This document shows, piece by piece, positions 10,016 to 63,000 of a DNA stretch of 64,000 nucleotides. Made by a program: the position numbers and the translations under genes. The notes under the pieces were generated by a model. It searched no databases. It had not been told where the DNA came from and worked only from the letters and a program-made list of their open reading frames with translations. Origin of the DNA: an uncultured bacterium (lineage in GTDB: Bacteria; Omnitrophota; Omnitrophia; Omnitrophales; Abzuiibacteriaceae); assembly GCA_964387845.1 (NCBI GenBank), contig CAYLXA010000001.1, forward strand, positions 256,001 through 320,000. The letters are read 5' to 3'. The first letter of the stretch is position 1. Every line of letters starts with the position of its first letter.

Positions 10016-10350
10016 CCTTTTCATTGCTATCTACAGCCTAAAGTCAACTCTATTCAAAGATCAAGTCCAACGTATCAAAATTTGCGCTTTCTCTACTGAC
10101 ACTAGATGAAAATCTATCCACACTAGATAAATCTGAAAATAAGTTTTAATAAAGTAACTATTTAGTCAAACAAAAGACCACATATTTTAGCCGAAATTAC
10201 TAACCGACTCGGCCAACCCATCACGGCTGCTTCTTCAACAAGGCTCTAAGAGAGCTCCTGTTTCCATTTCAACCTGTCTTACCCGTATCCAATAAATCCG
10301 AAGCCAGCGGATATTTCGCTTCATCAGTTTCTTGAATGTCAATTTCTGTT

Positions 10351-18093: not shown

Positions 18094-18435
18094 CTATTTG
18101 GCGTTGAAACCATGAGTCATTACTTTCATGCGCTGAATAAGCTTCTCGATGATTTTCATACCTCTTTGCCTACTTTCACGGGACTGCCGTTCTTTTGAAT
18201 GTAGGATCTGGATAAGTTCGCGACAAAGGTCCTTGTCTTTATCCGTAAATGCCGTTGTCACTAGTATTTCATTAATTCTATTAATGAAATCCGGAATTCT
18301 TTCTTCAAGCATTCTTTCACAATCATTAGATGAAAATGCTATGTAAATTGGGTAAAGCTTATTTCTTTGATATGCCAGCAGTCTCTTGATGGCTTCCTTT
18401 TGTACTTTTGACCGTTCAAATGTCAATTTTTTCAT
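18094..18435 (-). CDS. Hypothetical protein, 113 aa, first gene of the signalling operon
   Basis: ORF only. No motif recognised. Confidence 0.4.
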   Translation of the reverse strand: MKKLTFERSKVQKEAIKRLLAYQRNKLYPIYIAFSSNDCERMLEERIPDFINRINEILVTTAFTDKDKDLCRELIQILHSKERQSRESRQRGMKIIEKLIQRMKVMTHGFNAK

Positions 18436-18637
18436 CAGATTGGTGGCAAAATTCTATCACATTTCTCTATGCAAACTGATGTGAAATAATCAGTTCGCAG
18501 GATTGGCTTAACAGTATAAATACGGCACTTTTAAGCCGTTTTTTGACTTATGATGGAATTTGAAAACAGGAGAGTTTAGCTGAATAACATTGCTGATTGT
18601 GAAATGGGTGCTATAATAAAAACGTGGCTAGAGAGCG

Positions 18638-18697
18638 CTCGACCCGGCACGGAAGAACCTCTCAGGGCATTAAGCCTTTTCGCCACGCTTGACTAAT
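18638..18697. repeat. Copy 2 of the conserved ~60-nt intergenic element
   Basis: ggctagagagcgctcgacccggcacggaagaacctctcagggcattaagccttttcgcca. About 90% identical to 9953..10015. Confidence 0.6.
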
Positions 18698-18759
18698 GTT
18701 AACTCTCCTTATAACCGCTACCTACAACGCGTTTAGGCAAATCCATTGTTCGCAATGAT

Positions 18760-20502
18760 TCAGGTAATTGAACCTGAAATGGCCTCTACAAGCCTTCTTC
18801 TAAAGTAAGCCGTCACAGATTTCTCGGAATTCATTTGGAGAAAGGCTGGGTTGACATTGCCTGTGAGGTCTCCGCGCCACCCACGAAAGATCCAACCTTC
18901 GGCAGTATTTGGAATAGCGTGCAATTGAACTTTAAATCCTTCCTGATATCGCCCGAAAGCATCAGGTAAAGGCAATTGGTTCACTATGCCGTCACCTACT
19001 ATGCCGATCTTGATTCCATGTTTCGGGAATAAGCCAGAATGTTTGCTATCTCGATGAAGTGCAGGCCATGGTAGAAAATTTGAATGAGCCTGCTGAGTGT
19101 CAAATGAAAAAAATCCAACTTCAAATGGATAACCTAGATTTTTCATGGACATCACTACATCGGTGTCTCCGTCCGTCCTTAAATCAGTGATCATTGCCGT
19201 GCCGGTCGACCCGATTTCTCCACCCGGGGGAACAGGAACTTGCGCTGGAAAGCCTGGCAGCATGTTACCCTCTTTTGACCATGCATATATTTTTCCTGAA
19301 GGAGCAAGAAAAACTAAGTCATATGAAGAGTCACCATTAATATCAGCGATGGTTACATTGCTCTTTGTGATATAGGAGTACTCAGGCATGATGGGCTGAG
19401 GCCATCCGGGAAACGGAGTTCCGTTCGATTTGAGTACGTTCACATAACCGTCCGAAAGGAATGCAATTTCAAGCGTTTGATCACCATCGAGGTCGGCCAA
19501 ACTAGGGCTCCCGAGTGAAAAGCCCCATCCCGATACAGTCCGCGGCCATCCGGTTAACTGCGTGCCATTTGCATTAAGAACATTGATGCGTGCGGTAGCC
19601 GTTGTGGAATCCTCCAAAACAACAACATTCAAATTTCCGTCATTATCAACATCGCCTACGGACAAGCTGGATATCTTTCCACCGACAGTGACCGGCCACC
19701 CAGGCAAGTCGCTTCCATCTTTACAGCGAATGGCATACACCTTGTTTTGGCCTCGGATGAGAATGTCTTCGATCCCGTCGTTGTCGAGATCGCCAACTGC
19801 CAAAGAGGACCCGGCGAAATTAGAGATGATTTTTGGGTAGGTATTATTGAATAAGGTTCCGTCATTCTTGAACAGGTAAAGCATTGCGGTAGGCGGCGTT
19901 CCAGGTGTTGTAATATATTGTGCGCTTAAAATTGCAATTTCGCTCTCACCATCGTGATCAAAATCCCAAACTAAAGGAGTGCTTACGACGCGACCGTTTT
20001 GAGTAGGACCAGAAATCGACACTCCTGCTACCGGCCAATTGGGGAAAACATTGCCATCAGGTCTAAGCACGAGCAATTTACTATCATGTATATTACCGGG
20101 TCGATTAATTCCCACGCTAGCTATAATTTCTTGAACACCGTCGCCGTCAAGGTCAGCTATGGCAGGCATCGTTTCTACAACATCATCCACACTACTAAAA
20201 GCGGGTGGATTTGCTAGTGTAAAAAGATTAACGGGAAATCCTGGCAGGTCGTTACCAAAGGAATCCACACCGTACAAGAACCCATTATTCGCCCCCGCCA
20301 GTATTTCCATTTGACCATCAGGTTTTAAATCACTGACTACAACGGGACCCAGATAATGAAACGCGGACGCGGAAATCCAGCGAATAAATGTTTCGTCGTC
20401 AGCGCGAGCTTCCTTCACACCCAAGTTTAACGTCAACAAAAAAAGACAAATGAGCAGTCTAATTAAGAATCTTCTTACGACGAATACAATTTCGTTTAAC
20501 AT
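18760..20502 (-). CDS. Secreted FG-GAP/VCBS (integrin-alpha-like beta-propeller) repeat protein, 580 aa
   Basis: N-terminal signal peptide (LLICLFLLTLNLGVKEARA). Repeated calcium-loop motifs DLDGDGVQEII, DFDHDGESEIAI, GDLDNDGIEDILI, GDVDNDGNLNVVV, ADLDGDQTLEIAF, ADINGDSSYDLVF. Confidence 0.75.
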   Translation of the reverse strand: MLNEIVFVVRRFLIRLLICLFLLTLNLGVKEARADDETFIRWISASAFHYLGPVVVSDLKPDGQMEILAGANNGFLYGVDSFGNDLPGFPVNLFTLANPPAFSSVDDVVETMPAIADLDGDGVQEIIASVGINRPGNIHDSKLLVLRPDGNVFPNWPVAGVSISGPTQNGRVVSTPLVWDFDHDGESEIAILSAQYITTPGTPPTAMLYLFKNDGTLFNNTYPKIISNFAGSSLAVGDLDNDGIEDILIRGQNKVYAIRCKDGSDLPGWPVTVGGKISSLSVGDVDNDGNLNVVVLEDSTTATARINVLNANGTQLTGWPRTVSGWGFSLGSPSLADLDGDQTLEIAFLSDGYVNVLKSNGTPFPGWPQPIMPEYSYITKSNVTIADINGDSSYDLVFLAPSGKIYAWSKEGNMLPGFPAQVPVPPGGEIGSTGTAMITDLRTDGDTDVVMSMKNLGYPFEVGFFSFDTQQAHSNFLPWPALHRDSKHSGLFPKHGIKIGIVGDGIVNQLPLPDAFGRYQEGFKVQLHAIPNTAEGWIFRGWRGDLTGNVNPAFLQMNSEKSVTAYFRRRLVEAISGSIT

Positions 20503-21208: not shown

Positions 21209-21423
21209 ATAACTAATATCTCGGACAAGTCAACAAAAACTTTAAAAAAATTTTCATCGATCTGTCAAGTCTGACATAGACCACGTCTTTGATGATAAGC
21301 GAGAAGCATGTGTGGTGAGTTTTTCAAGGTTTGTTAGCACCGTGTTAGCACGGAGTGATATTTGGGCACAAACAAAAAAATAGCCATCGATGTAACTATC
21401 GATGGCTATTTTATTTACGAAAC

Positions 21424-21497
<74 letters not shown>

Positions 21498-21560
21498 ATA
21501 AAAGATAAAAACGAAGATGTATTATATAAAGCGAATGACAGATTTGCAAGCGCGGCTAAT

Positions 21561-27063: not shown

Positions 27064-27077
27064 AACTATGATATTTT

Positions 27078-27168
27078 CCCTCTCCCTCTGGGAGAGGGTC
27101 AGGGTGAGGGAGATATCTTCTAAACTATCACCCTCATCCTAGCCTTCTCCCTCTAAAGAGGGAGAAGG
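27078..27168. repeat. Copy 1 of a tripartite palindromic intergenic element (tccctct-ggg-agaggga / agggtgaggg...ccctcatcct / ccttctccctct-aaag-agggagaagg) between convergent genes; likely a bidirectional terminator or REP-like repeat
   Basis: Three consecutive hairpins are read directly. A second copy at 47119..47210 is about 85% identical. The 3' hairpin encodes the last residues of the adjacent TrmH-like ORF. Confidence 0.6.
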
Positions 27169-27698
27169 AATATTTGAGAAAGCCCTAAGCTTTCCGCAAT
27201 CCGGTAAGCCAAAATTCCCGCAGCCACCGAAGCATTTAAAGAATTTTTCTCACCCAACATCGGAATTTCAACCGCCAGATCGGCAATTGAAACCAGGCTC
27301 TCATCAACGCCCGTAACTTCGTTTCCAATCACCAAACAAACCGGCGCTTTGGGTTTTGCTTCAGCATACGAAATACTGGAATTTGTGTGCTCAAGCACGA
27401 TGAGCTGAGTTCCGTTTTCTTTCAAATGGTTTGCAATTTCAAATGCATCCGCGCGATATTCCCACGGCACGGACATTTCGGCACCAAGCGCTGTCTTTGT
27501 AATCATCCGGCTTGGCGGCTTTCCGGTAATGCCGCATAAATAAATTTTCTCGGCGCGGATGCCGTCCGCGATTCTGAAAATGGCGCCGACATTGTGCAGG
27601 CTCCGGATATCATTCAAAAGAAGCGAGATTGGATTGCGTCTAGCGGATTGATTCTGCTCACGTAATCTGAGGATTTCTTCGTGGGTGAGTTTCTTCAT
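27153..27698 (-). CDS. SpoU/TrmH-family RNA 2'-O-methyltransferase, 181 aa
   Basis: SPOUT motifs LIVLEHTNSSISYAEA, LVIGNEVTGV, LNASVAAGILAYR. Confidence 0.8.
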   Translation of the reverse strand: MKKLTHEEILRLREQNQSARRNPISLLLNDIRSLHNVGAIFRIADGIRAEKIYLCGITGKPPSRMITKTALGAEMSVPWEYRADAFEIANHLKENGTQLIVLEHTNSSISYAEAKPKAPVCLVIGNEVTGVDESLVSIADLAVEIPMLGEKNSLNASVAAGILAYRIAESLGLSQIFLLPL

Positions 27699-27799: not shown

Positions 27800-28798
27800 C
27801 TAGATTTTGAGTTTCCGGACACGCACTCCGGCTTCTTTGAGAAGATTGAGCGCCGTGCCGCCGAGCGGATAATCTACGTTATAAACCACTTCCTTCAGGC
27901 CGCTATTGATGATCATTTTGGTACACAAAAGGCAGGGTGAAAATGTTGTGTAAATCGTTGCGCCGCCGATATTGACGCCGTGGTAAGCCGATTGCGTGAT
28001 GGCGTTTTCTTCGCCGTGTGAGCAGAGGCATTCTTCTAGTTTTGTTCCGGAAGTCGTAAAGCTATTGCAGCGCGGGCACCCGCCTTCGTTGCAATTTTTA
28101 ACGCCGCGCGGCGTTCCGTTGTAGCCCGTGGAAATGATGCGTTTGTCTTTAACAATAACGGCCGCGACTTTGCGCTTCACACAATTTGACCTCAGGGAAA
28201 CGACTTTCGCGATTTCCATGAAGTATTCGTCCCAGTCAGGCCTTTTTTTTTGCGCAGAAATTTTCATGACAAGTTTCGCGATTTTATCATGAAATTCCGA
28301 AACTGTGCCCGAATTTTGCACCGTGTGATCGGCGAGCTCTAAAGTCCGGTCAAGCTGCTGGTCGCTTCCGACTTTGCTCTTCCCTTCGACATTCTCGAGC
28401 CGTTGAAATTCCGAAAAAGTAATCGGGTCTTTTTCGCGCCCGCGTTTTTTGATCCGCTGAAACCGGATTTTGGGAGAAGCCGCTACTTGAACCAACACAA
28501 AACCGTTTTTCGCGCGCAACTCCCGGACTTCTTCCGGATGCCGGATTGAATCGATCACATAATGCTTGTCGACATCTATTTTCTCGAGCGTCCGCTTCGC
28601 CAGAACACCTGCACCGTATTTTTGGCGGAGATCATTGCCGATTGCGATTAAATTTTCACGCGTGACGGGTTTTTTGCGCTTTTTGGCTTCATCCCGGACC
28701 ACATCCGAAAGCGAGAGATAATGAAAGCCGCGGTCCTTCAAAAAATCGGCAGCTACGCCCTTTCCGGAACCATTCTTGCCTGTTAAACCAATTAACAT
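27800..28798 (-). CDS. Two-domain protein, 332 aa: N-terminal P-loop nucleotide-kinase-like domain fused to a C-terminal dCMP/cytidine deaminase zinc-binding domain
   Basis: P-loop GLTGKNGSGKG. Deaminase motifs HGEENAITQ (H-x-E) and SPCLLCTKMI (P-C-x-x-C). ISTGYNGTPRG is typical of the dCMP deaminase (ComEB) family. Confidence 0.75.
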   Translation of the reverse strand: MLIGLTGKNGSGKGVAADFLKDRGFHYLSLSDVVRDEAKKRKKPVTRENLIAIGNDLRQKYGAGVLAKRTLEKIDVDKHYVIDSIRHPEEVRELRAKNGFVLVQVAASPKIRFQRIKKRGREKDPITFSEFQRLENVEGKSKVGSDQQLDRTLELADHTVQNSGTVSEFHDKIAKLVMKISAQKKRPDWDEYFMEIAKVVSLRSNCVKRKVAAVIVKDKRIISTGYNGTPRGVKNCNEGGCPRCNSFTTSGTKLEECLCSHGEENAITQSAYHGVNIGGATIYTTFSPCLLCTKMIINSGLKEVVYNVDYPLGGTALNLLKEAGVRVRKLKI

Positions 28799-47104: not shown

Positions 47105-47118
47105 TTTTGTTTCCTAAT

Positions 47119-47210
47119 TCCCTCTCCCTTTGGGAGAGGGCTAGGGTGAGGGATTTCTATAAATCCCACCACCCTCATCCTAACCTTCTCCCTCTAAAGA
47201 GGGAGAAGGG
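47119..47210. repeat. Copy 2 of the tripartite palindromic element (ccctctccctttgggagagggctagggtgaggga...caccctcatcctaaccttctccctctaaagagggagaaggg)
   Basis: About 85% identical to 27078..27168. Again the 3' hairpin encodes the last residues (SLEGEG) of the upstream ORF. Confidence 0.6.
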
Positions 47211-48007
47211 ATAAATCGTTTCATTAACCTGCTTGTTATAACGCCCGGAATTTCCGTGCCGATTTGACGGCCATCGAGCGACCGCACCGGCACGATGATA
47301 CCTGTTGAATTGGTTAAAAAGGCTTCATCCGCATTAAATACATCGTGACGCGTTAAGAAGGATTCTTCCGCCGAAATACCCAATTCGAGCGCATATTTTA
47401 ACACAAAACGGCGGACGACTCCATTCAGGATTCCGGCTGTGGGAGGCGTTTTCAACGCGCCTTCCTTCACCATGAAGAAGTTCCAGACTCCGGCCTCGCG
47501 TACATACCCGTCTGGCCCCAGATAAATCCGGTCAAACGAATCGGTACAATCTAAAAAAGCAAGCAGCCCATTGACCAGATCGCCTGATTTTGCTTCCGGC
47601 GGAACGCTGTTTGAGAGGTTGCGCCTCACAGCGGAAGTTTTAAGATCAACGCCTTCCCGATAAATCTTTTCGGGATAAGAGCGCACGGATACGATCGTGA
47701 AAATATTTTTCTCCGAAACAGCCAGACGAATTGAATGGTTTGGATTTTCTTTGGCGATTTCGGCAAGTTCTTTTTCAATCCGTTCACGTTCGGTGGGAAC
47801 TTCAATCCCTGAAGTTTTTGCGGATTCAAACAAACGGTCCAAATGTTCATTCAAATGCAGAATTTTACCGCTCCGGGATTGCATGGTTTCGAAAACGTTT
47901 AATCCAAGCTCCGCCGGCGATATTATAGGAAGCTCTGCCGGTTTTATCTGTTTTCCGTTGATAAAGAGAAGCATATCCGTAAGTGACATGGGAAAAGTAT
48001 AAAGCAA
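47180..48007 (-). CDS. Class-IV (fold-type IV) PLP aminotransferase: branched-chain aminotransferase or aminodeoxychorismate-lyase-like, 275 aa
   Basis: Fold-type-IV layout with EAFLTNSTGIIVPV and LNGVVRRFVL blocks. The neighbouring folC/purH genes favour, but do not prove, an ADC-lyase (PabC) role. Confidence 0.7.
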   Translation of the reverse strand: MLYTFPMSLTDMLLFINGKQIKPAELPIISPAELGLNVFETMQSRSGKILHLNEHLDRLFESAKTSGIEVPTERERIEKELAEIAKENPNHSIRLAVSEKNIFTIVSVRSYPEKIYREGVDLKTSAVRRNLSNSVPPEAKSGDLVNGLLAFLDCTDSFDRIYLGPDGYVREAGVWNFFMVKEGALKTPPTAGILNGVVRRFVLKYALELGISAEESFLTRHDVFNADEAFLTNSTGIIVPVRSLDGRQIGTEIPGVITSRLMKRFIPSPSLEGEG

Positions 48008-48030: not shown

Positions 48031-51000
48031 TTATGCGGAGTAGAAAACCTGCATTTGCGCGCGGAACTTGCCGACCAAATATGCCGCGGCTGATAATACA
48101 TGGTCCACAAACGCTTGGTTCCAGATTATGACCTTGTCTGCGATTTTTTCAAGAAATGGAACGGCAACCGCGTCATCTGAAACACCGATAATGGCCATGG
48201 AAAGACCGAGATTTCTAAGTTCGGCGCGCGCCTTGTGGTAATCCTCAACGGGAACAATCCTATTTTTTGGATTTGCAATGGTTGCATTAATCTCGTCGAT
48301 GACGCGAAGCTCTGCGCGGTTTGTCACGATCACCATGTAAGAACCGTAAACATCCGAAAGATTCCGGCCAACCACAGCCAGACTTCCCTTTTCGCCGAAG
48401 AAAGCGTTACGCGTAAACACTTTCCCTTCCCGCATCTCTGATCGATTTTGAAGTGCTGTAACAATCTGATTGTCAAAACTGCGAGCGTTTGACACAATCC
48501 GGCGCATTTCGCTTCTCGCTACCGGTGCAATCTCAGTTTGCAAATCTCGGAATAACGGATTTTCTTTGACTTCAACTCTTCCTTTAGCAATGGTTTTTTC
48601 AGTCTTTGCAATGACGCGGAAATTAAAAACTGTTTCACCCGAAACTTCGGACTGCACCTTGGCCATAATTAGCGGGAGCCCCAAAACTTCGCTTTGCACC
48701 TTGTCTCCGATTTCAGTATTATTGAAAGCATCTGCTTGATTTAGAATCGACTTTTCAATCGCGCTTTGAAAATCGATTGGTTTGATTTTTTGAAGGCTTT
48801 CCGGCAGCAATTCCTTGTTAATTTCGCCTTCCAAATGAATACTGACATCATAACGGCTTCCAATTGTCTTTTGAGCGATTGTAAAATTCCGGTGTTCGCT
48901 TGTTAGCGATTTGACGCCCGCCTGCTCATAAAATTGAGCATCAATAACGGGAACCTCGCGGTCTGCGATCTCTTCTAAAATCCGGACCGCGCGATGAATA
49001 TATTTAGCGTGCCGGAAACTTCTTCGCTCATTTTCGCTCAGAGTCAAACTCCTGTTTTTCATCTGCAATTCCGAATACCAGCGCCGGAATAACTTCATAA
49101 TTTGAATCAGCGAAAGCGGCTGGTTAGCGCCGAGCGGATTGGATGAATTTTGTTCGTAAATTCTATTAATATCTGTCTCGCTTTGAGCTGTCCAGCTTGA
49201 TTTTTCCTGATTTAAAACCGCTTTAAGTACCGGAATATAAAAACCTGTGTCACGCTCAATCCACCAATTAAGCACATAAAGAGCGGCGAAGCGCGCAGAT
49301 TGGCGCAGCATATCCGGATTAAAGTTTTTAGGCGCTACTTCAATGAGCGGTTTCCATTCATCAACCGGAATAACCGGTTCAGCTAAGTATTGAAGCAGTG
49401 TTTCGAGGCCAACCTCATTTCCTTTTCCAAGCTCATCGGCTCTTGTCTTCCGGATTGTAAAATTAGGATGCGACAAATTTCTAAGAAGTTTTTGCACCGA
49501 ACGCAGTTCTGATTTTTGGCTGCCGGCATCAGGCCCAGGCATCGGCTCTGTCAATTTTTGGAAACGTTCGGCCAATTCGGTTTCTGAGATTTTAAACATT
49601 TCGTCAACAAACGCTTCGGAACCGCCAAGCTCCCCTCCGTCTTCTCCGAATAAACGGACTTCGACTAACTCATGAAACGCAACGGCAAATCTTTCGGCCG
49701 ATATCCTTTCTTCATCCGTTTTGAATTCAAACTGAAAAGCGAGACGCGTATCCTTAACCGCTTCAAGCGTCATCAAGGCCATCGGATTATCCGCTTCGAT
49801 CCATTCAGCACTCCCTTTGTTCAGATTTTTGATCTTAACAGAAACATTTTTTGCTAGGGCGGCTTGCGCCATTTCGACAATGAACATCGCTGGACTCGCA
49901 TGGACACCTTGCCGGTTCTTGACCGTAACATTGATCTCAATGCTGTTACTTTCCCCTTCCCGCAATTCCGACATGTTTCTATCAGTCGGCGTTACGGACT
50001 TTTTATATTCATTAATCTGATGATCGAGAAAAGCTTCGTAACTATCAATGGCCTGGCTTGTTTGCGCCAACCACTCTTCTTCTTCTTTCAATAATAGGCC
50101 ATGTTCTTCTTTCATTCCCTTCAAAGCAGACTTTGCTTTTCGAAGCTCTGGTAATATTCTGAGATAATAATCGTTCGCTTCCGCGGCTAGAGAATTGCCT
50201 CGATCCGAAACTGACAAAATAAAGCTGCTGAAACGATTCAACAAAACTTCCGTGCGGCTCAATAAAATCTTAATTCTGAGCTGCTGTTCATCCAAAGCGA
50301 TTCGCCTCGGTTTGATAAGAGAATAATAAAGGAGCGCTCCGACTCCTATGCCTATCGCGCCCGCTGAAATACCGATAACGGTATAATTTCGTAATTCAGA
50401 ACGATGTTTAGGCGGACGGGGAAAACTTTGAAAAGGCCCCCTGCGCGCAGCGCGGACAGCCTGAATTCTCGCCGTCACTTCTTCAATAGTATCTAAGTCA
50501 CCGGCTAATTCTGCGTTATGAAGCTCGACTTCCAATCTTGCCAAATCCGTCGAGTGATGCGATTGGTCTACAGCAAACGGAAGCTCGATCGGCTCCTCAT
50601 TTTCCAAATCATTGCGCAGTTCCGAACGGACACCGGATTTTTCGCGAGGCGGCTGTTCAGATTTCGGCGGAACCGGGATCCATCCTTCCCACCGGCGGTA
50701 AACATGCGTAGGCCGCGTCCCTACTTCATTGGAAATATTTTTACCGCGCACGCCATGAACCTGATGGGCTTCATCACGCCGTAAAACTTCGGCTCTTTGT
50801 GCACGAAAATAATCATCCGTAAAATGAGTGATTTCGCCGGTTTTTAAGCCCGCGCGGCGCCAGTCAATGTGCCCTTCGGGATGAACAACACGCATATCTT
50901 TCTTCAGTACCTGCAAAGCTCCGGAAAATGCGGCGTGATTAAACAAAATAACTGTTTTCCCGCGATACTGCTCGTTCATGCGTTTCCAAAAAGCGGCGGC

Positions 51001-54000
51001 GCGGATGATTAAATGGGCAAAACTTTCGCCATGCTCAGGTTTCGCCAAAACACTCCACTTTTGATAACTTCGCGCGGCCTTGAATTGTTCCCGGCCAAAC
51101 TGCGCCTTAATTTGCTCATTGGTGAGCCCTTCCCATTCGCCTTGAAAAATTTCTTTTGTATCGGGATCAATCATCACTTTCAGTTCAATTCCTAATTTTT
51201 CACGTACCAACCGGATAAATGGTTCTGCCGTATCCCGCACACGCCCAAGCGGATTAATGATCACCACAAACTGATCCGGATTTGCTGTGATTTGGTCTTT
51301 AAACTTTTCAAATAATTTTTCAGCGTCAGCTTGCGCTTGCACGCGCCCTTTTGGCGTCAACTGCGCGCCTTCGTTATCCATACCGCTTCCCTGAAACCTC
51401 TTTCTCCCTGTTCTTAGCCCTTCCGCAATGATGTGAGTTTCTCCGTGGCGGATAACGTAAAGATCCAGATCAAGCGCCGGTGGGAAATAAGGCTCTTTAT
51501 AAAAAAGCTGCCCGGTCGATTGATTGACCCAAAAACCCATTTGTTGCAATGTTTCGGAAACATTTTTTCGCAATTCCACCCTCGCCTTCATTAATAAATC
51601 CGGCTGTATTGCACTGGTCGGAACCACAAGTTTGCCGTTTTCCCAATAGACCAGCGCACTCAAAAACTGGAACATGACCGGATCATGTTTTCTCACAAAA
51701 TCAGGGTCAAGCCAGTAAAGAGACTGGGCTTCAAAGAAAAACTCTCGCGCAGAAACAATGCTGTATCGGCTCAAAAACTGCGTTTCAATTTCTTCTTGAG
51801 AATAATCAAGCACCTGCTTCTTTTTCCCAAATTGCCTTTCAAGTGCCTGCAGCCTAGTCTCATAAATCCGTTTTGCAATCTGATAAACTGCTGTTTTATC
51901 GTGTGGAATGTTCACAATAGAGAGTGGTAAATTTTTATTCGCAAAATGCTCTAAGCGCTCAAAGTTAATCGGCAGCGCATACTGATTATGCTCAACGAGC
52001 GTTTCCGCAAGTTCGTGAGTCAGGAGCCGTTCTAAATAAGTAAAGTCCTTATCCCTCACCTTCAAAAATTCATCGCTCACTGGCCCGTCATAGGAGATCG
52101 GATGATCGCCCGCATAAAGTGAAAGAAAGATCGATTTAACATTGGACAGCACAGGATGAAGGGAGTGATAGGTAACGCCTCCCAAATGATCTCCGTTGCG
52201 TCTTACGATAGAACGCGCAATAAATACTTGGGCATTGAGCATTTTAAAAAGCGGTGCAATTGCAATGCCGGCCCTATGGCTTTCAAGGAAATGATTGAGC
52301 TGGCCATATAACTTACGCGCTAATCTCCAGTCGGTTTCACTGTTTAATCCATGCAATACATCAGTCCGAATATGTGCAGAAGAGCCTTGTAGATAACCCA
52401 AAACAATTTGACGCAATTCCGCCCTTGCCCCCTTTGAAGAAACATTTTCATGATCCGCTGGGGCCGAGGGGCTTTCTTGTAGTTCTTGCAAAATTAATAT
52501 CACTTCGTCCGGAAGTCCTAATGCGCTTAAAGCATCCTTGGCGCTTTCGAGCTGATGAAAACTGAAATGATCCGCAAATCTTTCTGCGCGAGACTTATTT
52601 CCCAGCAACCCTGTCAAAAATGGGATAGCCAACTCACGAAAATGAATGCACCATGGCTCCGCTTGAAGAATCCGGTTGGTCAGATAAAGCAGTTTTTTAA
52701 GCTGTTTAAACGATAAATCGCTATCTTGAAGCGCGGCACGGATTGCGTCATGGCCTGCATCCAACAACATAGTCTTAGGGGCAGCACTTTCCGCTTCGGA
52801 ATTCCTGAGCTCGGAACGTATGGCTCTAGATTTAATAGCAACGCTGCCGAGATACACATTGCCGCTCTGGTGATAAAGAAGCGGGTTTTCGTGGCCATCC
52901 ATGCTGATAACGTCTCCATCCGCGATATCACGGCCGGCGATGAGCCAAAGATGCTTTTCCGGCTGGAACACCATGTCCGGAACGCCATAAACGGCCGAAA
53001 TGCCTTCTTTCTGCGCCAGCGTTTCCGCATGCACTGAAATGGTCTTCGCTAAAATATGAACCCCTTTTGGAATCCGGTTAATCATTTCGGGATTCACTCT
53101 GTCCAAGATCAAAATAACGCCGTCAACATCCGCTCGGGGATGAGAAACAAGTTCGCCCAAAAGCTTTTCCGCTGCTTCTATCGAATTAGCCGCCAAACCG
53201 CGAATCGCACCGCCGCTCACGCCATGGCCGCGCGCAATCGGCTGATTGTCAGTCGAGTCGGCAAATTCCGGATATTGATCCGTCACAAAATCATCATTGC
53301 TTTGGACAATCCATATCTTTCCGCGCTCAATCGTGAATTCAAACTGCTGGTTGTAACGGAAAATGTTCTTGAGCTTACGCGCGTACTCGAACACTTGTGC
53401 GTAAAGCTCCGGCTGCAATGCTTCAAATGTTTGTTCATCCGGCCGGATTCGCTCACCATTTCCGATTAAAATGTAATTTTGGCCGGCACGGCTCATCAAT
53501 TGATCGCCGATCGAGTGAAACCGAAATTTACCTTGGAGCACGTCATGGCCGTCCGGAAGTGTTCTCAAAACTGCGTGCCCCGCGCCTGAAATTTTCCCGT
53601 CATCAGTCGGCTTTAAATTTCCGAAAACGCCTTTCTGCAGAATAACGACCGTTCCCCACTCTTGCGAAATCTGATGCCGTGTACGATACGCGCGTGCCTC
53701 TTCGGAGTCCCACGATGCATAAACCGCTTCGACTGCCATCATGACCTGATCCATCATGTCGTTTGGAATTATTTTGCCGTGCCGCGCCACGATTGCTTTG
53801 CACTGTTCCACCACTGCCTTCATGCCGTCTGCCGACAAATCTTCCTTTTCTTTAACATTCAAAACCTGCTCAAATTCCGCCTCAGGAATACCGAGCACAT
53901 TGATCGAAAATGACCGGATAAATTCCGCGTAGGTGTCATACGCAAACCACGCATCGCCGCTTTTTTGGGCAAGCGCTTCGGCTTCCGCGTCGTTCATGCC

Positions 54001-57000
54001 CACATTCGACACAGTAGCCAAAAGGCCGGGCAGCATGAAAGCAGAACCGCTTCGCGCGTACAAAATAAGCTTGAGGTCGGGATACTCGGAGTAGCGTTTG
54101 AGCCGTTCGATTTCGGCTGCGATTTTTTGACGGAATTCGTCCGACCTGAAAATGTCGGGTTTCGTCACTAACTTGGCGCTCAAGATGACACCCGGCGGTA
54201 CGGGAATCCTCTCGTGCGTCATGCGGATCAAGTTCAGGCCCTTTTTGCTCCAAAGCGAGAGAAGTTCCGGCCGTTCATCCGTTTCATTTTCGCCAAACCG
54301 GTACAAATGTTGCTCGAAATCATCCGGCCTTTCCGCGCCGGCATCCTCACGGATGGCTTCGTCCTGGCCTTGCGAAAGCGCAGAAGCGAGAACAGCATCA
54401 AATTTCATGAGCGCGCGGTCAAATGCCGTCGCGCCGGAATTCCGGATCAGCTCATCAATCACCGCGGCTTCAAGTCTCTCTTTTCCTTCAGGCGGAAAGT
54501 CATAAATTTGATAAGTCTGATCATCCTCTGTTTTGGTTTTGATTTTAAAGAGGCTGGTATGTTCGCGCCATAATTTTGCCAGATCGTGATAACCAACTTC
54601 ATCCAAGCTGTATTGCATGGCCGCGCGCATGGTGTTATTTAGTTGCCGGGTAATTTTGTGGACTTCGGCCTCAAGCGTGTGGACCAAATCGTAGAGCTGC
54701 GACGCCTTAATGCTGCCCGAATCAAGCTCAACCATCAATTGATCAAAATCGACACCACCCAGCCCTGAAGCCTGAATAAACCGGCCGAGCGCAATGAGAT
54801 TGGGCAATTCGCGCCGCAAATCGTCTACAGAATTTATTTTTTCAATCTTTTCCTGGACGTGAGCAATCTTTTCCGAAGCTAAAATCGATAATTTCTCGCT
54901 CATTTCAACCAACGTGCGTAAATCATATAGATAATCACCTTCTTCATGCATATCGTTCCACTCCTGGTCTATATCATCCGCATCCTCATCGGCCGAATCT
55001 TCGCCGTCCCGCCCAATGCTCTTCTCTGCCTGTCCCAATACTTTTTTCTGATTTTCCTCTCCGGAAAGCAAAAACTCTTTAAGATCATTTTGCACTTTCA
55101 CGATGGCGGAGAAAATGGCCGCATGATCATCAGAATCGATCAACATAAGCAGCCGATCGTAATCCTCCCGCATAAACCGGGTAATGGCCGTCATTTTCTT
55201 TTTCAAGTACCCACCGTCACGCAGATCTTCAGTTTCTCCTTTTAAGAAAGGAACGATCGTCGCGACGCGAGTTCCGAAATGATCCGCAAAAGCCAAATAA
55301 AGTTGAGTCATTAATTGAACGCGTTCATAGTCAATCTCGGACACATCTTCATCCCGGTTCGCTTCTTCATAAATCGCGACTACTTCACGCTCCGGAATGT
55401 CCAGGATTTCATCCAGAAAAGCCTCCGGATCGCTTTTGCTGATTTTCCCTTTGGCCGCAAGCGCTTTGACAAAACGGTTCAAGAGTTTTGAATAAGTTTG
55501 AAGAGTCGCTGGATTGAAATCTTTTGTCATATCATCCCGCAGCAGAGTCCAGTTGCTTTCCTTTAAAATAGACTCATCAAGCGTCAACCAATAAGCAAGA
55601 ACTCTTCTCGTATTCTCAAAGTCACTTCTATTCAAGTTTCGATGAATACCGTCTCTAAAATGGCTGAACCATCCGCGGCCAAACTCGCCGGGATAAGAGG
55701 CATTATTATCAAGCCGTCTTGAATAGCTGATAATACGGTCCTGCGAATTATCCGTAGAGACGCCGCCCTTGCGTTCGGCTTCGATGACTTTCATTAAATA
55801 AAAATAGGCCGCTCGGGCGTTTGGTTGATGGAGCAAATACAAGGACATCTGCGGATACTCTATGCGCTTTCTGCCTTCGCTTGGAATATCACGCACAAGG
55901 CCTTGGGCTGCCACAAAAGCAGCGGCAAGCGGATCCGCCGGTGAAACGCTCAGCAAGATAGAAATCAGTTCCCTGAAAAATTCGTGGCCTATGGTTCGGA
56001 GGTGCAGCAGAAGGTGAATCAGTTTACCCAAGTCGTCAGGACTTGCTTGGCGGAAAGTTGCTTCTAAATCATGGTGGATATCAGCTTTGATGTAATGCTC
56101 ATTAAAGTAAGCGGCTGCCAACTCAAGAAAAATCCGGTTCTCTTCCGGCGAATTTGTTTTAGAGAGGTAAATCGGAATCAAATGCTCTTTAAAGAAAGCA
56201 TCCGTCATTCTATAGCGGTCGGGCGACATCGCGCTCGACACGTACCACAAGTAGCTCTGTTTCTTATCCAGCGGTAAATCTGCTTTTAAAATAAACTCGC
56301 GAATCAAATTCTGCAGATGCTCTTTAGAATTTTTTTTAAGTAGGTCGATAATCGCCTCTTTCCTCGCCCCGACGGCTTGATTTTGCTCAAACGACAGGTG
56401 CTTGCCGCCTCTTCCAAAACTTAGTTTCATGAGTGTTTGGTAATCGCGCAGCGCTTTTTCGAATTCTTTATAAGACATTGGGTTTGTACGACCGTCCGAC
56501 CTGAGCTCGGAACGTTTTTGGGCAGTAAGTGTTTTTAAATTCGGAAAAAGTGTGCGGAACGGTTCGCCGAAAAAGAGGCGGCGTCGGACAGCCTCTTTGC
56601 GGCGATGAATAAATGCGGCTTGAGTCGGAAAAATAAGATGCCTCGGCAGAGGAGCGTATTTTAAATAAACAGGAGCTGATGTATTGATACCAACATTTAA
56701 TTCCGGGTCTTGCAAATTCGGCAGCGGAAGCGTGAGCACCGCATCCCGCAGAGGATTTTTACTGCGGTCACCGATTGTGCGAATCAGCATGCTGGCTTGA
56801 ACCTCGCTTACATCCCACGGTGAACGGAATCCCAGCCGAACCCAGTCAGATTCATTACGCGATAAAACTTCCGCGACCAGTTTTTCTATTTTTTCATTCG
56901 AAATTTTTCGGCCCGTTTCAACACCGTTCTGATCCAGTTCGGGAACATCGGTCAGCATCCGGCTTAGATATTCCGTCATGGATTGTTTTCCGGTGCGGCG

Positions 57001-60000
57001 TTTTGTATCGTCCGGCCAAAATCTGGCGCCATACTTCAGTGAGAATATTTTTACGCCCAGATCTGTGGATCTGTAACCAAACTTCCAATCATGAACGTCT
57101 TGATCCAGCATGACCGATAAGGCCCATAGCATCAAATTTCGATACGTGAAACCCGGATAAGACTGCGAGAATTTTCGTGTAGACGGCGGTATATCGGCCA
57201 AACGTTCTTCGGGCCATGCCGATACAACACTAATGAACCGCTTGACATAATCGGCCAGCAGCTCGTTGTCCGAGGGTTTCTTGATTTCTTTCCCGTCAAA
57301 TTCCTCAATATGAAGACCGGTCGGACGCAGATGTATGACTTGCGTCAAGCCCAATGTCCAGTAAGCGTAAAATAAATCCTCTAAACCACCCGCAAGCAGA
57401 TGATCCAGACGGCCTGCAAATTTTTCAAATTCGTCCAGGTCTTTGAAATAGGGATCGATTAACGTTGCCAAAAATTGGTTGAGGTTGCCGAATTTCTTGT
57501 CAAGGCCCCGGTTTTCCCATTCCCGGCGCAATTCGACGCCGAGCTCGCGTAATTCCCTATTCGAAAATCCTTCGGGCAATACCTTGCTCCAATAAATGCG
57601 CCTGTCCTCTGAGCCGCTTCTGGGCCAAAACCGATTGGAGTCGTGCGGGCTCAATAGAAACGTCAGAGCTTCAAGGATATCGCCTTCCGTCAGACTGTCA
57701 TAAATCTTATTCGGAGAGCCCGCTTGATCCATCAAATCGCGAATCACATCCATAACTTGATCGACTTTTGAACGTTGGGTGACCGCGGCAGTTTGCCTAA
57801 GTTCCGAACGGTTTTTCAGAATTTGCCGCCGTTCTTCGAGCGTAAAAAATTGTTTTTCGTAAGCTCTTTTTGCGGCTTCCCGGATTTTTCTATTAAACCG
57901 GTCTAAATCAGTTATTTCCTTCTTTAAAAAATCAAGCCACTGTTTTGGTTCAATGGTCATTTCCCCGAAAAATTCGTCGCTCAAAAGCATCAACAGCTGC
58001 ACAAATGCGACTTTGTACAAAGGATCTTCCTGATCCAAGGCAGCCCGCATCGCATCTGATACCGGAAGTACCGGATTCAGATAAGGGAACAGGATTTGAG
58101 CCGGATAGGACGACCGGATTAATTCATTCAATTTAGCTTCTACTTCAAAGTAAGCATGGGCCAACAACCCCTGCTGATCGCCTTCATACCCGCCCAGCGC
58201 ATGAGCCAGCAAACTTCCGGGACGCAGGATAGCTTTCATCACATTAATCCAATAGAGCGATGTTGAGTAATCGTTTTCTCCCTTATAAAATTCGTTTGCA
58301 AACACATAGGCATCGGAATGGCTAAGTTCCTCCTCTAAAACTCCGCTCCGGTATAATTGTGCGACATACCCATAATCGCCCAAACTATAAAAATGCATTT
58401 GAATCCAATCTCGTAAGTAAGCGACGGGTGATTGATCAAAATTGGGAAATTGATACTGGCCCGTTTCATATAACTTTTTCAAATTTTGGTAATAATCAAA
58501 ATTTTCTATCGAAGGAACGTCGGTGCCTTCAATAATGACAATATGCCTGTCTTTCGCAAATGCACTTAGGTAACTGTCGCTCTTTCCGTCTCTCGATTTG
58601 AGGCGAACGGTGTAAACCGGAACAAACCGGCCTGCCGCAGAGCGCTGAGATTCCCTTTTGATAATTTTACCGACCAAGAGTCCGCTGCCGTTCACTATGT
58701 CCACGATCAGGCCACGTGGAATTAAAATATCGTCCGCGATTTTTGTTCCTATTTTTCCGATATCATAAATAGAAATCAAATCTTTGTGGCCAAATGAAAA
58801 AGCGGCATCAAAATCCGGTGAAAGAGGCCTGAGAACCTGGTTGAATGTTTCAACGGCCTCAAGACGGTTTAAGTCATTTAGACTGGCTTTTTCGACTAGG
58901 TACTTTAGCTTCGGCCAATAGCTCACCCAAAACCATTCCACAACATCAAAGCTGGGGCTATCCGGATTTAGGAGCCTAAACTCTCTGATTAAGTTGAGAA
59001 TTTGATTCGCCTGGCTGGTGTTGAGCGTGATCTTTCCGCGCAAAGCTTTGATAATGCCTTGCGCATTTAAATTTTGAGTTTCCAAAAATTCTTTCAGAAC
59101 ATCTACGGTAAAAAAGCGTTTAATATTTTTTACGCTTAATTTCGAAATGATGAGAGCATGCAGCGTTTGAACCGGATCCGTATTTACTGCTTGTGCCGTC
59201 TGATTGCGCAATTCAGAGCGGAGTAGCTCAGACTGCGGGGCAGCGGTTTGACCTTGCAACGGGATTTCCCAGAAATTGCGGGCGTTGCGGGCAGAATCGA
59301 AGAATGCTCTGGCTTTCGCACGGTTGCCTTTGGTTAACTCGAATAATCCAAAAATAATTGCGTAAGCTCTTTCCGTAAAGCTACGCGACTTTTTTAGCAC
59401 AAAGTCACGGGCCAGCCACCGGTAACGGAATGCGTCAAAATGATACTGAAAACCGGCTTCCGGATCGTGAATCTTTTTAATTGTATTGCGCGAGGCTCCC
59501 TGAGAGTAGTGCTGATCTAAATAATCGCGGCCGTAGTTGGTAATCCCTGCATAGATCTTCTTAAAGCCCGAACGCCGCGCGACATCTTGAAGAATCTGAA
59601 TCGCTTCCGGCATCAGTTCATCGAAATATTTTGCACCGTCATTGTTAAACTCGAAACTGTTGACCGTTAGTACCGGATCTCCATTGTCTTCCGATGCAAT
59701 CATCCACATCTGTGCCCGATGCTGATAGGCATCGCCTGAACCCTTGTGATCGATGTCCGCCAGGATAATTCCGTCGTCACTCAGGAGAGAGGGCAAAATC
59801 CAGGAGACAAAATGCTGCAGAGAAATACAATTTCCGATGGCTTCACTTGAAGTGAGAAAATCTATCGCGCCTTTCAGGGTCTTTTTGTCGTGAATTCTTA
59901 TTCGAATTCCCTTTTCTTTATTTTCGTAAACCCTGCCCTTCTCAAATTCAGAAACATTGATGCCGATTGCCTGCATTTTTTTCTCAATGGCTGAAACATG

Positions 60001-63000
60001 GCCTGTTTTGCGAAGTCTTTCTGACAAATAATCACGCAATCTTTTGTAATACAAAATTCCGGGCGCAATATTGAGCCGCGTGCTGATCAAAAAAGTTCCT
60101 GGCGCGATAATTCCCATCAAAATAAAAAACAAGGCAGCATTTGAAATGAGAGGATAAATGGTAAAAACGCCGAACCCGACCAGAAACGCGAAAGCGGTCG
60201 GCGCCACCCAAGCATAAATGGGCCTTGGCGGCTTTCTAAGGCCTTTCAAAATGCGTGGATTCATCGTGACAATGTCGAGAGCATCTGCAATGCTGATCCC
60301 GAGTGCGCGCCGCACTTTGGCAATTTCGGAAATTTTCATGCGGCTCAGGCGCGTGGCTTTCATAAATTTCTGAACCGCCATGAGTTTGTCAAAAGCGTCT
60401 TTTTTAAGACTGTCCCGCACCGCTTTGTCTTCGGAAAGCCTGCGCATAGCTTCTTGATTTGAGGCTGACCAGACTACGGCAATAACTTCTTCCGTTTTTT
60501 TCCGCTGGTCAGGCGAAAGTTTATCCAAAAACTTAAGCACATTGACGAGATCGCCGTCTTTAACGGACACGTTGTACAGAATTTCTTCAAAAAAGTACCG
60601 CAAATTCCGGTTTGGACTTGGAAAATATTCGAGCAACTTTTCAAGTTTCGCGATTGCGCGCGGAGGATAGCTCATTTTCTGCGCAACGGGATTTTCATTA
60701 ATTTCAGCGAGAATGGTTTCGATAAATTTTGGATATGCGCGGAGCTCGGATCGCTGCTCATCGGTTTTTTTTGCGATTGCCCTCCTTTCAGACTTATGCT
60801 GAAACCACCACATTCCTCCAAAAAGAAGCAGAAGCGGCGGGATCAAGGAAGCATTGTCCGTAAGCCAGGCAACGGGCCCGGTCACAACAAGAACAAGCGA
60901 GGCTGTAATTGCCTTAAGAAAATATTGTTTCCGGAACTTAAACCACCACGTTTTATACTGAGTCGGAAAAATCTTAACGCGGTTCGATGGTTGAATTAAA
61001 TCCGTTACATAACCAATCACTTCACCTTTTGGGAAAGCATACTCCAAAGGCTCGACCGGATACCCATAAACGTCTAAATATTGTTTTTGGGAAGGATCGG
61101 CATATTCGATCGATACAAGCTCGGGCTGTTTGCCGGATTTCTTAACATAATCGACAAGCCTCTTAGGCCCTTGATTGAGCGGATAAGCAAAATAAAGAAC
61201 TGATTTAAATCCGCATGCCCGGGCATAGTTCTCGATGATTTTTTGAATTCCCTTCGCCTTTGCATCAAAAATTCGCCCCTCCACACCGTCCACAAATAAA
61301 ATCGGCTGTTCTTTTCCGTCTTGATCCTTATAAATCGCGGCGGCGATTCTGGCCCGTACCCGGCGGCCTTCGCGCGTACGGAAATCAATCGCTGAAATAC
61401 TTTTGTTGTGCAAATAATTAAACGGGCCCAGCGCACCTTTTGTTCTCCGGTTTAATTTGTCAAGCCACGTGTTGCCGCGAAGCGACGCCGAAGAAAAGAA
61501 ATCCTTTTGATTGGTTAAATCAAACCACGGATCGCGCCGCCAAATCCGGGCTTCTACAATTGAGTCCGGTAAATTTCCCCAATCGTCAATCTTGGAGATA
61601 CTTTTCTGAAGGTATTGATTGGCCTTCGCGGCATTGGGGTTTACATATTGGCCCAGCTCTTGCAGCAACTTTTTTCCTTCCTCGACAGGCAATTCACCTC
61701 TTTTATTCCTGGCCAATTCTTCTTTGTGCGCATTGAAAAATTGAGTGACCGACTTCTTACCCTCCTTTAAATTGGGCGTGTACTGTCCGGGCTTAAACTG
61801 GCGGTCTTCGGTTGAACCCAAAAAATCCCTGAGTATTTTCTGGATAAACTCGGGGATGGTTTGATTTTCCGCGTCTTCGAATTCCCCTGCCGGTACTTTT
61901 TCAATATTATCCCCGCGAATTTGATAATAGACTTTGTAATCCGGATTATCCCAATTTTCGTTGATGCCGACCGATTTGAGACGCTCCATGGTTTGAATCG
62001 CTGCCTCGGTCTGGTCAAACCATTGCCGGTAACTTCGCCGCTTAAGCATGGAGGCCAGATCCAACGCGGAAATTGTTTTCCACGAAAAAATGAACATTCG
62101 TTTCGCAAATACCGCCAAAATGTAAACCAAGGCTGTGAAACCTGACGCCACAAACAAGCTTTCAATCCATCCTGCGGGATCAGAATTGTTGATCATTTCC
62201 CTAATATTTAAGCTTGCTAAATTTCCATCCATCCAAAAAGAAATAGCGGAATAGAAAATTGTGAGCGCTGCGCGTTGAACCGAAGCATAGAAATATCCAA
62301 TAACGCCAGTGAAGGAAACCGCGAGAAGATGCAGCCACGGGTTCTGAATGAGCGCCGTACGGGCGTGCGCAATCCGTGCGCGTTCTAATTTTTCTTCGTT
62401 AATTTTGTTCAAGTCAATCTTTAAACTTTTAAACTTTTTCCACAAAAATTTCAGCTCCGGGAAACCGTCTTTCTCCATCCGCTCGTCGATTTCGGCAATG
62501 GTGAGATCTGAATTCTCACGCAGTTCACTGGCTGCCTTTGGATTTTTGCTTTTTCCGTTTCCGGAAAAAGCGTTGCGCGTCAGAACACCGATCGTTTTAA
62601 ACACCAGCGCGGTGTTATAAAGTGCCGACCGGTCCCGGATATCGTTTAACTCCAGCTCTATGTCATGCGTGTCCATGCCAAACTTTCCGGTTCCGATACC
62701 CCGCTTTAGAGCGCTTGAGCTGAGAAAACCCGGCTTGGTGTGATGTAAAACACTTTCGATATAATTTTGATCAACTTCCAAAGGTAAGCGCGGCCTTGGC
62801 CCAAACCATTGCATGTCACCGCGGACAATCGACAAGAGCTGCGGAAGCTCATCAAGCCCCGTTCTGCGCAAAAACCATTCGTAAGGCGTAATGCTTTCAT
62901 CTGAAATGTTGAAATCAAGTTTCATGGTTTTAATTTTTCGTATCACAATCGTCTTGCCCTGAAAACCGATTCGCTCTTGAATAAAAAACATGGGGCCGCT

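Follow-up and report, generated by a model that had tools for sequence, protein, structure and literature searches.

A branched, sequence-conserved intergenic element in a tRNA-adjacent island, and its possible role as an intrinsic-terminator-like 3'-end module

The 64-kb stretch of DNA analysed here (the window) carries a 61-base intergenic sequence that occurs twice in an island flanking tRNA-Met. Read along the minus strand, the region opens with tRNA-Met (21423-21498), the gene for an HTH_17 response regulator and that for a 580-aa FG-GAP protein (ORF 18760-20502, minus strand; Pfam FG-GAP_3, E 8e-26), after which lies the first copy to be met, here called copy 2. It is followed by genes encoding a 113-aa protein, an acyl carrier protein, a receiver, a methyltransferase, a 7TM histidine kinase, a 163-aa protein and two further receivers. 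An HTH_3/cupin gene on the opposite strand and a gene for a 182-aa protein then precede copy 1, and beyond copy 1 are genes for a 503-aa Big/Glucodextranase_B protein, a 2070-aa SpvB/TcdB/FG-GAP/RHS toxin, a TPR protein and a 210-aa protein. Both copies are on the minus strand, matching all flanking genes, and are separated by 8.7 kb within one low-GC segment, the GC content being 40% at positions 1-21400 and 46-48% in the remaining window. The first 30 nt of the Logan contig carrying the region stop precisely where tRNA-Met has its 3' end. Since Logan assemblies are built with k = 31 (PMC12424806), this contig start, together with the low GC content, suggests that the two copies reside within one strain-variable genomic island next to tRNA-Met. 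No integrase, recombinase, transposase or RAYT was found among the island genes examined, and no RNA-binding protein domain was detected in the island. Elsewhere, the window encodes a 332-aa protein (27800-28798, minus strand) that resembles anti-phage dCTP deaminase (NCBIfam E 2e-43, below the curated cut-off), as well as a giant ORF of more than 5321 aa (48031-63996, minus strand) that runs past the window end.

The two copies and the sites in the spacer around copy 2 are as follows.

18620-18690, minus strand: copy 2 (core 18625-18685), placed by predicted fold, repeat and covariance model
18612-18622, minus strand: U-rich tail of copy 2, GUUUUUAUUAU, directly 3' of the closing helix P1; its first three U can pair with the 5' flank
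18522-18539, no strand assigned: small hairpin in the spacer between copy 2 and the 113-aa gene, terminator-like mainly on the plus strand, where there is a T run
18451-18459, minus strand: candidate extended -10 promoter, TGATAGAAT, recognised by eye only, for the operon that opens with the 113-aa and acyl carrier protein genes
9942-10022, minus strand: copy 1 (core 9952-10013), with the same three-way junction as copy 2

The first-pass annotation had placed a second copy of a 60-nt element at 18620-18700. That copy is real; the element spans 18620-18690, with a tail reaching to 18612. The extended closing helix of copy 2 begins (at 18690) 69 nt after the stop codon of the FG-GAP gene, and, approximately 185 nt past the copy, the downstream operon begins with a gene that starts at 18435, so that the distances given earlier were correct within a few bases. 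The candidate -10 sequence TGATAGAAT is unchanged in a closely related strain and was left uncalled by the consensus scan, which demands a -35 hexamer. The small hairpin at 18522-18539 could stop antisense transcription coming from the operon side. On the other side of the signalling genes, the spacer between the 182-aa gene and copy 1 is 335 nt long; it contains the direct repeats AGATTTATCTAGTGT and AGATTTTCATCTAGTGT (approximately 10093-10135, minus strand), which may be a regulator binding site. A degenerate third copy that had been suspected in the same neighbourhood, at 10190-10270, was rejected, as its local alignment was no better than that obtained with shuffled sequence.

The repeat finder paired 9952-10007 with 18625-18680 over 56 gapless nucleotides (89% identity), and the full cores, which run from TGGC to GCCA, are approximately 93% identical with one 1-nt indel. 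When a 26-mer derived from the element was searched with up to three mismatches, 0.00 chance matches were expected from shuffled sequence. A covariance model (R1), trained on the window's two copies, recovered these two only when the 64-kb window was scanned (103.5 and 101 bits; E 4e-24 and 2e-23), and with the filters off the next match had an E value of 0.28, revealing no third copy in the window; altogether, the element was counted twice in about 69 kb of scanned sequence. A coding function was ruled out because the 1-nt indel shifts the frame and the copies share no ORF. The element is real and non-coding, and it is absent from the descriptions in Rfam. The Rfam scan of the whole window at the gathering threshold returned tRNA-Met only; a short stretch around copy 1 gave no match at E values up to 10, and the stretch around copy 2, at the same limit, gave ctRNA_pND324 as the sole match, with a chance-level 15-17 bits against a threshold of 45 bits. 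Several known classes of structured element were considered and rejected. The junctions of 5, 2 and 2 nt, inspected by eye, show no CUGANGA/GAA/UH arrangement of a hammerhead or other ribozyme core, for which Rfam was also negative; a tRNA-like element was rejected; and an attC site was discarded because the structure differs from the simple hairpin, with its R and L boxes, of such sites and because no integron integrase is present.

As minus-strand RNA, each copy is predicted to fold into the same three-way junction. The closing helix, P1, has the core UGGC/GCCA and is followed by the junction sequence GAAAA. P2 is a 3-bp hairpin, GGC-UUAA(A)U-GCC (GGC-UUAAU-GCC in copy 2), which a CU linker connects to P3, a long hairpin (GAGAG...CUCUC) with internal loops and the apex UUGCCGGGUCGAGC; a UA linker leads from P3 back to P1. 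In copy 2, P1 is formed by 18682-18690 and 18620-18628, and the minus-strand minimum free energy is -31.5 kcal/mol (z = -3.25), with none of 200 shuffled sequences folding as well. The corresponding minus-strand fold of copy 1 has an energy of -29.2 kcal/mol (z -2.0). The plus strand of copy 2 folds less well (-25.0 versus -31.5 kcal/mol), and the G-U pairs of the structure (U34-G53 and one in the P1 extension of copy 2) become A-C mismatches on that strand. Both observations favour the minus strand as the meaningful one, in agreement with the earlier reading.

Conservation of the element was followed in one close and one distant relative. The close strain (L002 and L003) is 95.5% identical overall. 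Its substitutions in the copy 2 spacer are unevenly distributed: the 72 nt that separate the FG-GAP stop codon from the element carry six, the element itself is unchanged, and the 184 nt beyond it carry one. One of the six turns TAACAT, the closest approach to a -10 hexamer ahead of copy 2, into TAACAC, so that the T at position 6 is lost. Because this 72-nt upstream flank is the most variable part of the spacer between the strains, a promoter of copy 2's own is less likely. Homologues of the 113-aa protein were found in one 97%-identical strain only, and those of the FG-GAP protein were at most 40% identical, the best such locus being without the element.

The distant relative (L084, ERR3478686) encodes an ortholog of the 503-aa protein that is 51% identical. 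Its contig opens inside the element with CCTTAGCCGGGTTGAGCGCTCTCTAGCCAC, which is followed by ACTTTTAAC; the 3' half of the element is thus present at the orthologous position, with 89-91% identity to both window copies. For comparison, coding DNA is approximately 70% identical in the best stretches, and the spacer beside the element cannot be aligned. In the alignment of the window and L084 spacers three conserved blocks stand out, namely the element, a sigma-70-like promoter with an A tract, and the leader of the following operon. The first 30 nt (k-1) of the L084 contig end one base past GCCA, the 3' boundary shared by the window copies. Given the Logan k of 31, a break at the repeat boundary would mean at least two copies of the element in that genome, and the contig break hints that the element is probably multi-copy there.

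With three loci in hand, the variable and invariant parts of the structure can be told apart. Outside the core there is no sequence similarity between the window copies, yet the flanks of each copy are mutually complementary and lengthen P1. In copy 2, AAGCG pairs with CGUUU and adds five pairs, and in copy 1, GAAAAGGGUU pairs with AACCUUUUUC, adding approximately nine pairs and extending P1 to 13. In the consensus fold, two P1 pairs show two-sided changes between the copies and one shows a one-sided change. P2 and P3 are invariant across the known sequences. All five core differences (three between copies 1 and 2, two in L084) fall at unpaired positions, which make up approximately 45% of the core; the probability of this is about 0.02 by our own estimate. 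P1 comprises 9 to 13 pairs, and a run of four to five U lies 0-3 nt away from it in copy 1, copy 2 and L084. The tails that contain the run differ among the three loci (CCUUUUUC, GUUUUUAUUAU in copy 2, and ACUUUUAAC), and in copy 1 an upstream A run can pair with most of the U run. An A-rich plus-strand tract had been described before copy 2 and interpreted as a U tract after the element on minus-strand RNA. This holds, since 'ataataaaaac' at 18612-18622 is GUUUUUAUUAU on the minus strand, right after the helix, and a U run is seen at all three loci.

These features lead us to a tentative reading, to which we give somewhat less than an even chance, that the element is a branched intrinsic terminator or 3'-end module belonging to a small repeat family. 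The element would be transcribed as the 3' end of the upstream unit, that is, of the FG-GAP gene at copy 2 and of the 182-aa gene at copy 1. The GC-rich P1, extended by the locus-specific flanks and followed by the U run, would end the upstream transcript, which would probably retain some 70-80 nt of stably folded RNA at its 3' end, and the next operon would be insulated by the element and driven from its own promoter. A stop of transcription at the element is predicted from the modelled helix and U run, and the folded 3' end may have a further role. The element has the helix-plus-U arrangement of an intrinsic terminator, and it is the first hairpin-plus-U structure past both upstream genes on the minus strand. 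Its position at the 3' end of the upstream transcript, and not in a 5' leader, is suggested by the promoter lying downstream of copy 1 and by the variable upstream flank at copy 2. The element is not found between a promoter and a start codon, as a 5'-leader cis-regulator would be, and it lacks the conserved promoter of its own that an independent small-RNA gene would have; the consensus scan found no promoter-like site upstream of either copy. Several observations count against termination as the whole explanation. The helix does not close a simple short loop (3-8 nt) and instead encloses a 50-nt branched insert, a 'loop' unusual for an intrinsic terminator, and neither copy was called by the terminator scanner. 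The approximately 90% conservation over the entire core, stems included, exceeds the needs of a terminator, and a covarying inverted repeat formed by the apex of copy 1 and a downstream leader, described below, is unexplained by termination alone. The terminator reading rests on three loci, one of which is partial.

The spacer between copy 1 and the 503-aa gene contains the following features.

9964-9977, minus strand: segment A, the P3 apex of copy 1 (UUGCCGGGUCGAGC), one arm of a 14-nt inverted repeat
9856-9883, minus strand: sigma-70-like promoter TTGACC-16-TAAAGT, preceded by an A tract and situated between copy 1 and the 503-aa gene
9800-9813, minus strand: segment B (GCUCAACCCGGCAA) in the leader of the 503-aa/Rhs operon, complementary to A and predicted to be single-stranded between two leader hairpins
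9741-9775, minus strand: leader terminator hairpin (9751-9773) with its U tract, the tip of the long conserved leader hairpin

A promoter, TTGACG-16-TAGATT, is found at the matching place in L084, and this conservation after copy 1 implies that the downstream operon has its own promoter. The leader of the 503-aa/Rhs operon is itself conserved (9700-9850, minus strand; 130-285 in L084). Its 5' hairpin shows compensatory changes between the species and is followed by segment B, predicted to be single-stranded, and then by a long hairpin of approximately 85 nt, composed of three stacked stems and tipped by a strong terminator whose U tract lies immediately ahead of the start codon. This leader is a probable attenuator, as judged from the predicted structure, and it matched no Rfam family at the gathering threshold in the whole-window scan. 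At the end of the Rhs operon, tandem terminator hairpins (436-500, minus strand) share an ACCCGGC/GCCGGGT stem with the leader terminator, and this stretch is 84% similar to the leader terminator of L084. The idea that the two ACCCGGC/GCCGGGT terminators form a repeat module bracketing the Rhs operon was rejected, as 436-500 is simply a tandem hairpin pair.

Of the 14 positions at which A faces B, 13 are complementary (93%), and 150 nt separate the two arms. Segment A also matches, at 12 of 13 positions, the complement of the leader terminator's 5' strand (9763-9775). In L084 the A:B pairing extends to 15 contiguous pairs and that between A and the terminator strand to 11 of 11. The differences between the species are two-sided: the L084 apex has gained an A (UUAGCC) and the leader has gained the matching U (GGCUA), the single A:B mismatch (C opposite A) is replaced by a U-G pair, and a C-G pair between A and the terminator strand has become U-A. 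When a read-through transcript was folded, A paired with B in the minimum-energy structure of either species. The chance of a 13/14 complement within 300 nt is approximately 2e-3 by our own estimate, and the proximity of the arms together with the two-sided changes places the A:B relation above chance. It is conceivable, if unlikely, that the element is half of an undescribed switch of an Rhs/Tc-type toxin operon, in which apex and leader co-evolve either through an RNA-RNA interaction or as the arms of an invertible promoter. In the RNA version, the 3' end of the upstream transcript would set the level of read-through at the leader terminator, and copy 2, behind the FG-GAP gene, would be a paralogous input.

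The same relation can be explained by a regulatory RNA, either a small RNA derived from the 3'UTR or a read-through transcript, whose P3 apex would pair with the toxin leader and alter attenuation; such pairing, whether with segment B or with the terminator's 5' strand, would then couple the upstream signalling and surface genes to the toxin operon. This possibility, compatible with the terminator reading, is one to which we assign a low but appreciable probability. It gains from the extent of the complementarity in both species, from the paired A/U insertion and the replacement of the A:B mismatch by U-G, from the C-G to U-A change opposite the terminator strand, and from the position of B between two conserved leader hairpins, and the predicted read-through fold and the small chance estimate agree with it. 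However, no partner segment was found near copy 2, site B ranks only fourth to sixth of 6400 windows by duplex energy, and cofolding in trans gains nothing (0 kcal/mol) with copy 1 and 4 kcal/mol with copy 2. An equally good match to enolase mRNA is clearly due to chance: although 14 of 15 positions agree within the conserved ALDPA codons, the match scores like other chance matches, so that enolase mRNA was rejected as target or origin. Moreover, A resembles the 3' strand of the terminator stem, so that the complementarity could reflect common origin, and the covariation comes from one species pair. The arrangement of A and B may alternatively be read at the level of DNA, the two being arms of an invertible promoter that switches the toxin operon, or the two full copies being att-like sites around the 8.7-kb signalling module. 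The inverted repeats at 9800-9813 and 9964-9977 do enclose the promoter at 9856-9883 in the geometry of an inverton, at copy 1 only and likewise in L084, and the conserved-promoter segment of 150-155 bp that they flank precedes a surface/toxin operon. Between species the two arms have changed in concert, as homogenising recombination predicts; the full copies are direct repeats bracketing 18094-10351; and the whole region is apparently a strain-variable island adjoining tRNA-Met. Nevertheless, we consider recombination improbable. The island genes examined include no recombinase or integrase, none being found between or beside the direct repeats, and both assemblies show the promoter segment in one and the same orientation. 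An inverted partner is missing at copy 2, and the L084 contig break fits the repeat boundary and not the outer edge of the inverted repeat. Furthermore, recombination would account for only 14 of the 61 conserved bases and leaves the compensating flanks and the U runs unexplained.

Conservation beyond the needs of a plain terminator, which includes the GAAAA junction and the loops, raises the question of whether termination could be conditional, the three-way junction serving as an aptamer or protein-binding site whose occupancy would decide P1 closure and hence read-through into the next operon. P1 directly abuts the U run, as such a device would require, and the HMP-PP thiS riboswitch, a terminator-embedded aptamer, provides a precedent (PMC6478431). 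On the other hand, no riboswitch or other Rfam family was matched even at E values up to 10, the downstream genes have no common metabolic theme, the operon downstream of copy 1 has its own promoter, the island encodes no RNA-binding protein domain, and the sequences are too few to show aptamer-like conservation; a conditional terminator thus seems to us a poor prospect. Slightly better placed, though still rather unlikely, is the view that the element is a dispersed palindrome of the REP or MITE type, selfish or neutral, and lacks a function of its own where it stands. More than one copy exists here and probably also in the relative, and searches outside the lineage yielded no genuine copy. 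The pattern GGCGAAAAGGC-N4-8-GCCCTGAGAG had no match in GTDB species genomes, JGI metagenomes or IMG/VR; BLAST against plasmids and phages did not detect the element; and four pattern matches (two metagenomic with the 3' half, two viral with a 16-mer) were dismissed as chance, the covariance model finding nothing at any of these sites. The element was also absent from 80 enolase loci (1.35 Mb) of the nearest genomes, whose enolases are at most 70% identical (Melioribacteraceae, Crocinitomicaceae and Ignavibacteriaceae among the best); no GTDB species genome exceeds this value, so that there is no close reference, and by these best matches the host belongs to the FCB group. In addition, the genome has another structured intergenic repeat family. 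On the opposite side, the conserved ends are just TGGC and GCCA, terminal inverted repeats of only 4-5 nt where a MITE would have about 10 nt or more, and the flanks are complementary and not direct repeats; no target-site duplication, RAYT or transposase was seen. Similarity ends at the core, so that neither copy is the remnant of some larger mobile element, an outcome that the first-pass annotation had named as one that would overturn its proposal. The orientation relative to genes is constant in both copies and in the ortholog, the flanks are co-adapted to lengthen the helix, and identity of approximately 90% persists at the orthologous site even though the adjoining spacer has diverged beyond recognition.

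The other repeat family is approximately 100 nt long, structured and intergenic, and occurs at 27076-27172 and 47118-47213. Its helices are CCCTCTCCC-TCT-GGGAGAGGG, AGGGTGAGGGA pairing with CACCCTCATCC over an unconserved spacer, and CCTTCTCCCTCT-AAA-GAGGGAGAAGG, and its conserved arms are 92-95% identical between copies. This family looks REP/BIME-like.

Both copies of the branched element had been associated with loci for secreted FG-GAP/VCBS-repeat proteins, from which a shared regulatory input was proposed. The proposal draws on two copies only, 8.7 kb from each other in a single low-GC island. The region is indeed rich in FG-GAP, Rhs and signalling genes, but the placement of the copies relative to FG-GAP-type genes is opposite, as copy 2 is downstream of the FG-GAP gene and copy 1 is upstream of the Big-domain/Rhs operon. 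The position of the promoter at copy 1 and the variable flank at copy 2 make a shared regulatory input less likely. We regard the element as a small, lineage-specific curiosity whose role as a shared regulator is at most putative. If the terminator reading is true, the element would be an unusual, sequence-conserved and branched terminator in a poorly sampled lineage of the FCB group; it would help annotation and show that terminator stems can hold conserved inserts, and no concept would be changed. If the A:B complementarity is functional, it would represent a compact wiring of a contact-dependent toxin locus to neighbouring signalling genes.

Some known systems resemble parts of this arrangement. 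Invertons are invertible promoters of surface-structure loci in Bacteroidota, and copy 1 similarly contributes to a short inverted repeat around a promoter segment of approximately 150 bp upstream of a surface/toxin operon; in contrast to invertons, no invertase is nearby, one orientation was seen, copy 2 lacks an arm, and the arm is a small part of an RNA-like element. CpxQ and SdhX of enterobacteria are small RNAs derived from 3'UTRs that share the terminator of the mRNA. Like them, the element would be a folded RNA that closes a coding transcript ending in a terminator, with a part complementary to the leader of another mRNA, but its putative target lies only 150 nt downstream on the same strand, and its host lineage is distant and uncultivated. 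In the HMP-PP (thiS motif) riboswitch, an aptamer is embedded in a terminator stem (PMC6478431), and the element likewise has a conserved structured domain inside what may be a terminator stem; unlike the riboswitch, it is not in the 5' leader of a biosynthetic gene, shows no similarity to it by sequence or covariance model, and has no indicated ligand. With intrinsic terminators the element shares a GC-rich closing helix, a U run 0-3 nt after it, an upstream A-rich stretch that can pair with the U run, and a location between the end of a gene and the promoter that serves the next unit, as is also the case for bidirectional A-tract types. It differs from them in that the loop is a conserved 50-nt two-hairpin insert rather than 3-8 nt, and in that its sequence, and not its shape alone, is kept between copies and species. 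REP/BIME repeats are short, structured, intergenic, multi-copy and lineage-specific sequences that at gene 3' ends stabilise or terminate transcripts. The element is likewise short, structured, intergenic, lineage-specific and present in more than one copy, and it lies at gene 3' ends, whereas it is branched and not a simple imperfect palindrome, and no REP-associated transposase was seen. By analogy, the element appears most like an intrinsic terminator or a REP-type element at a gene 3' end.
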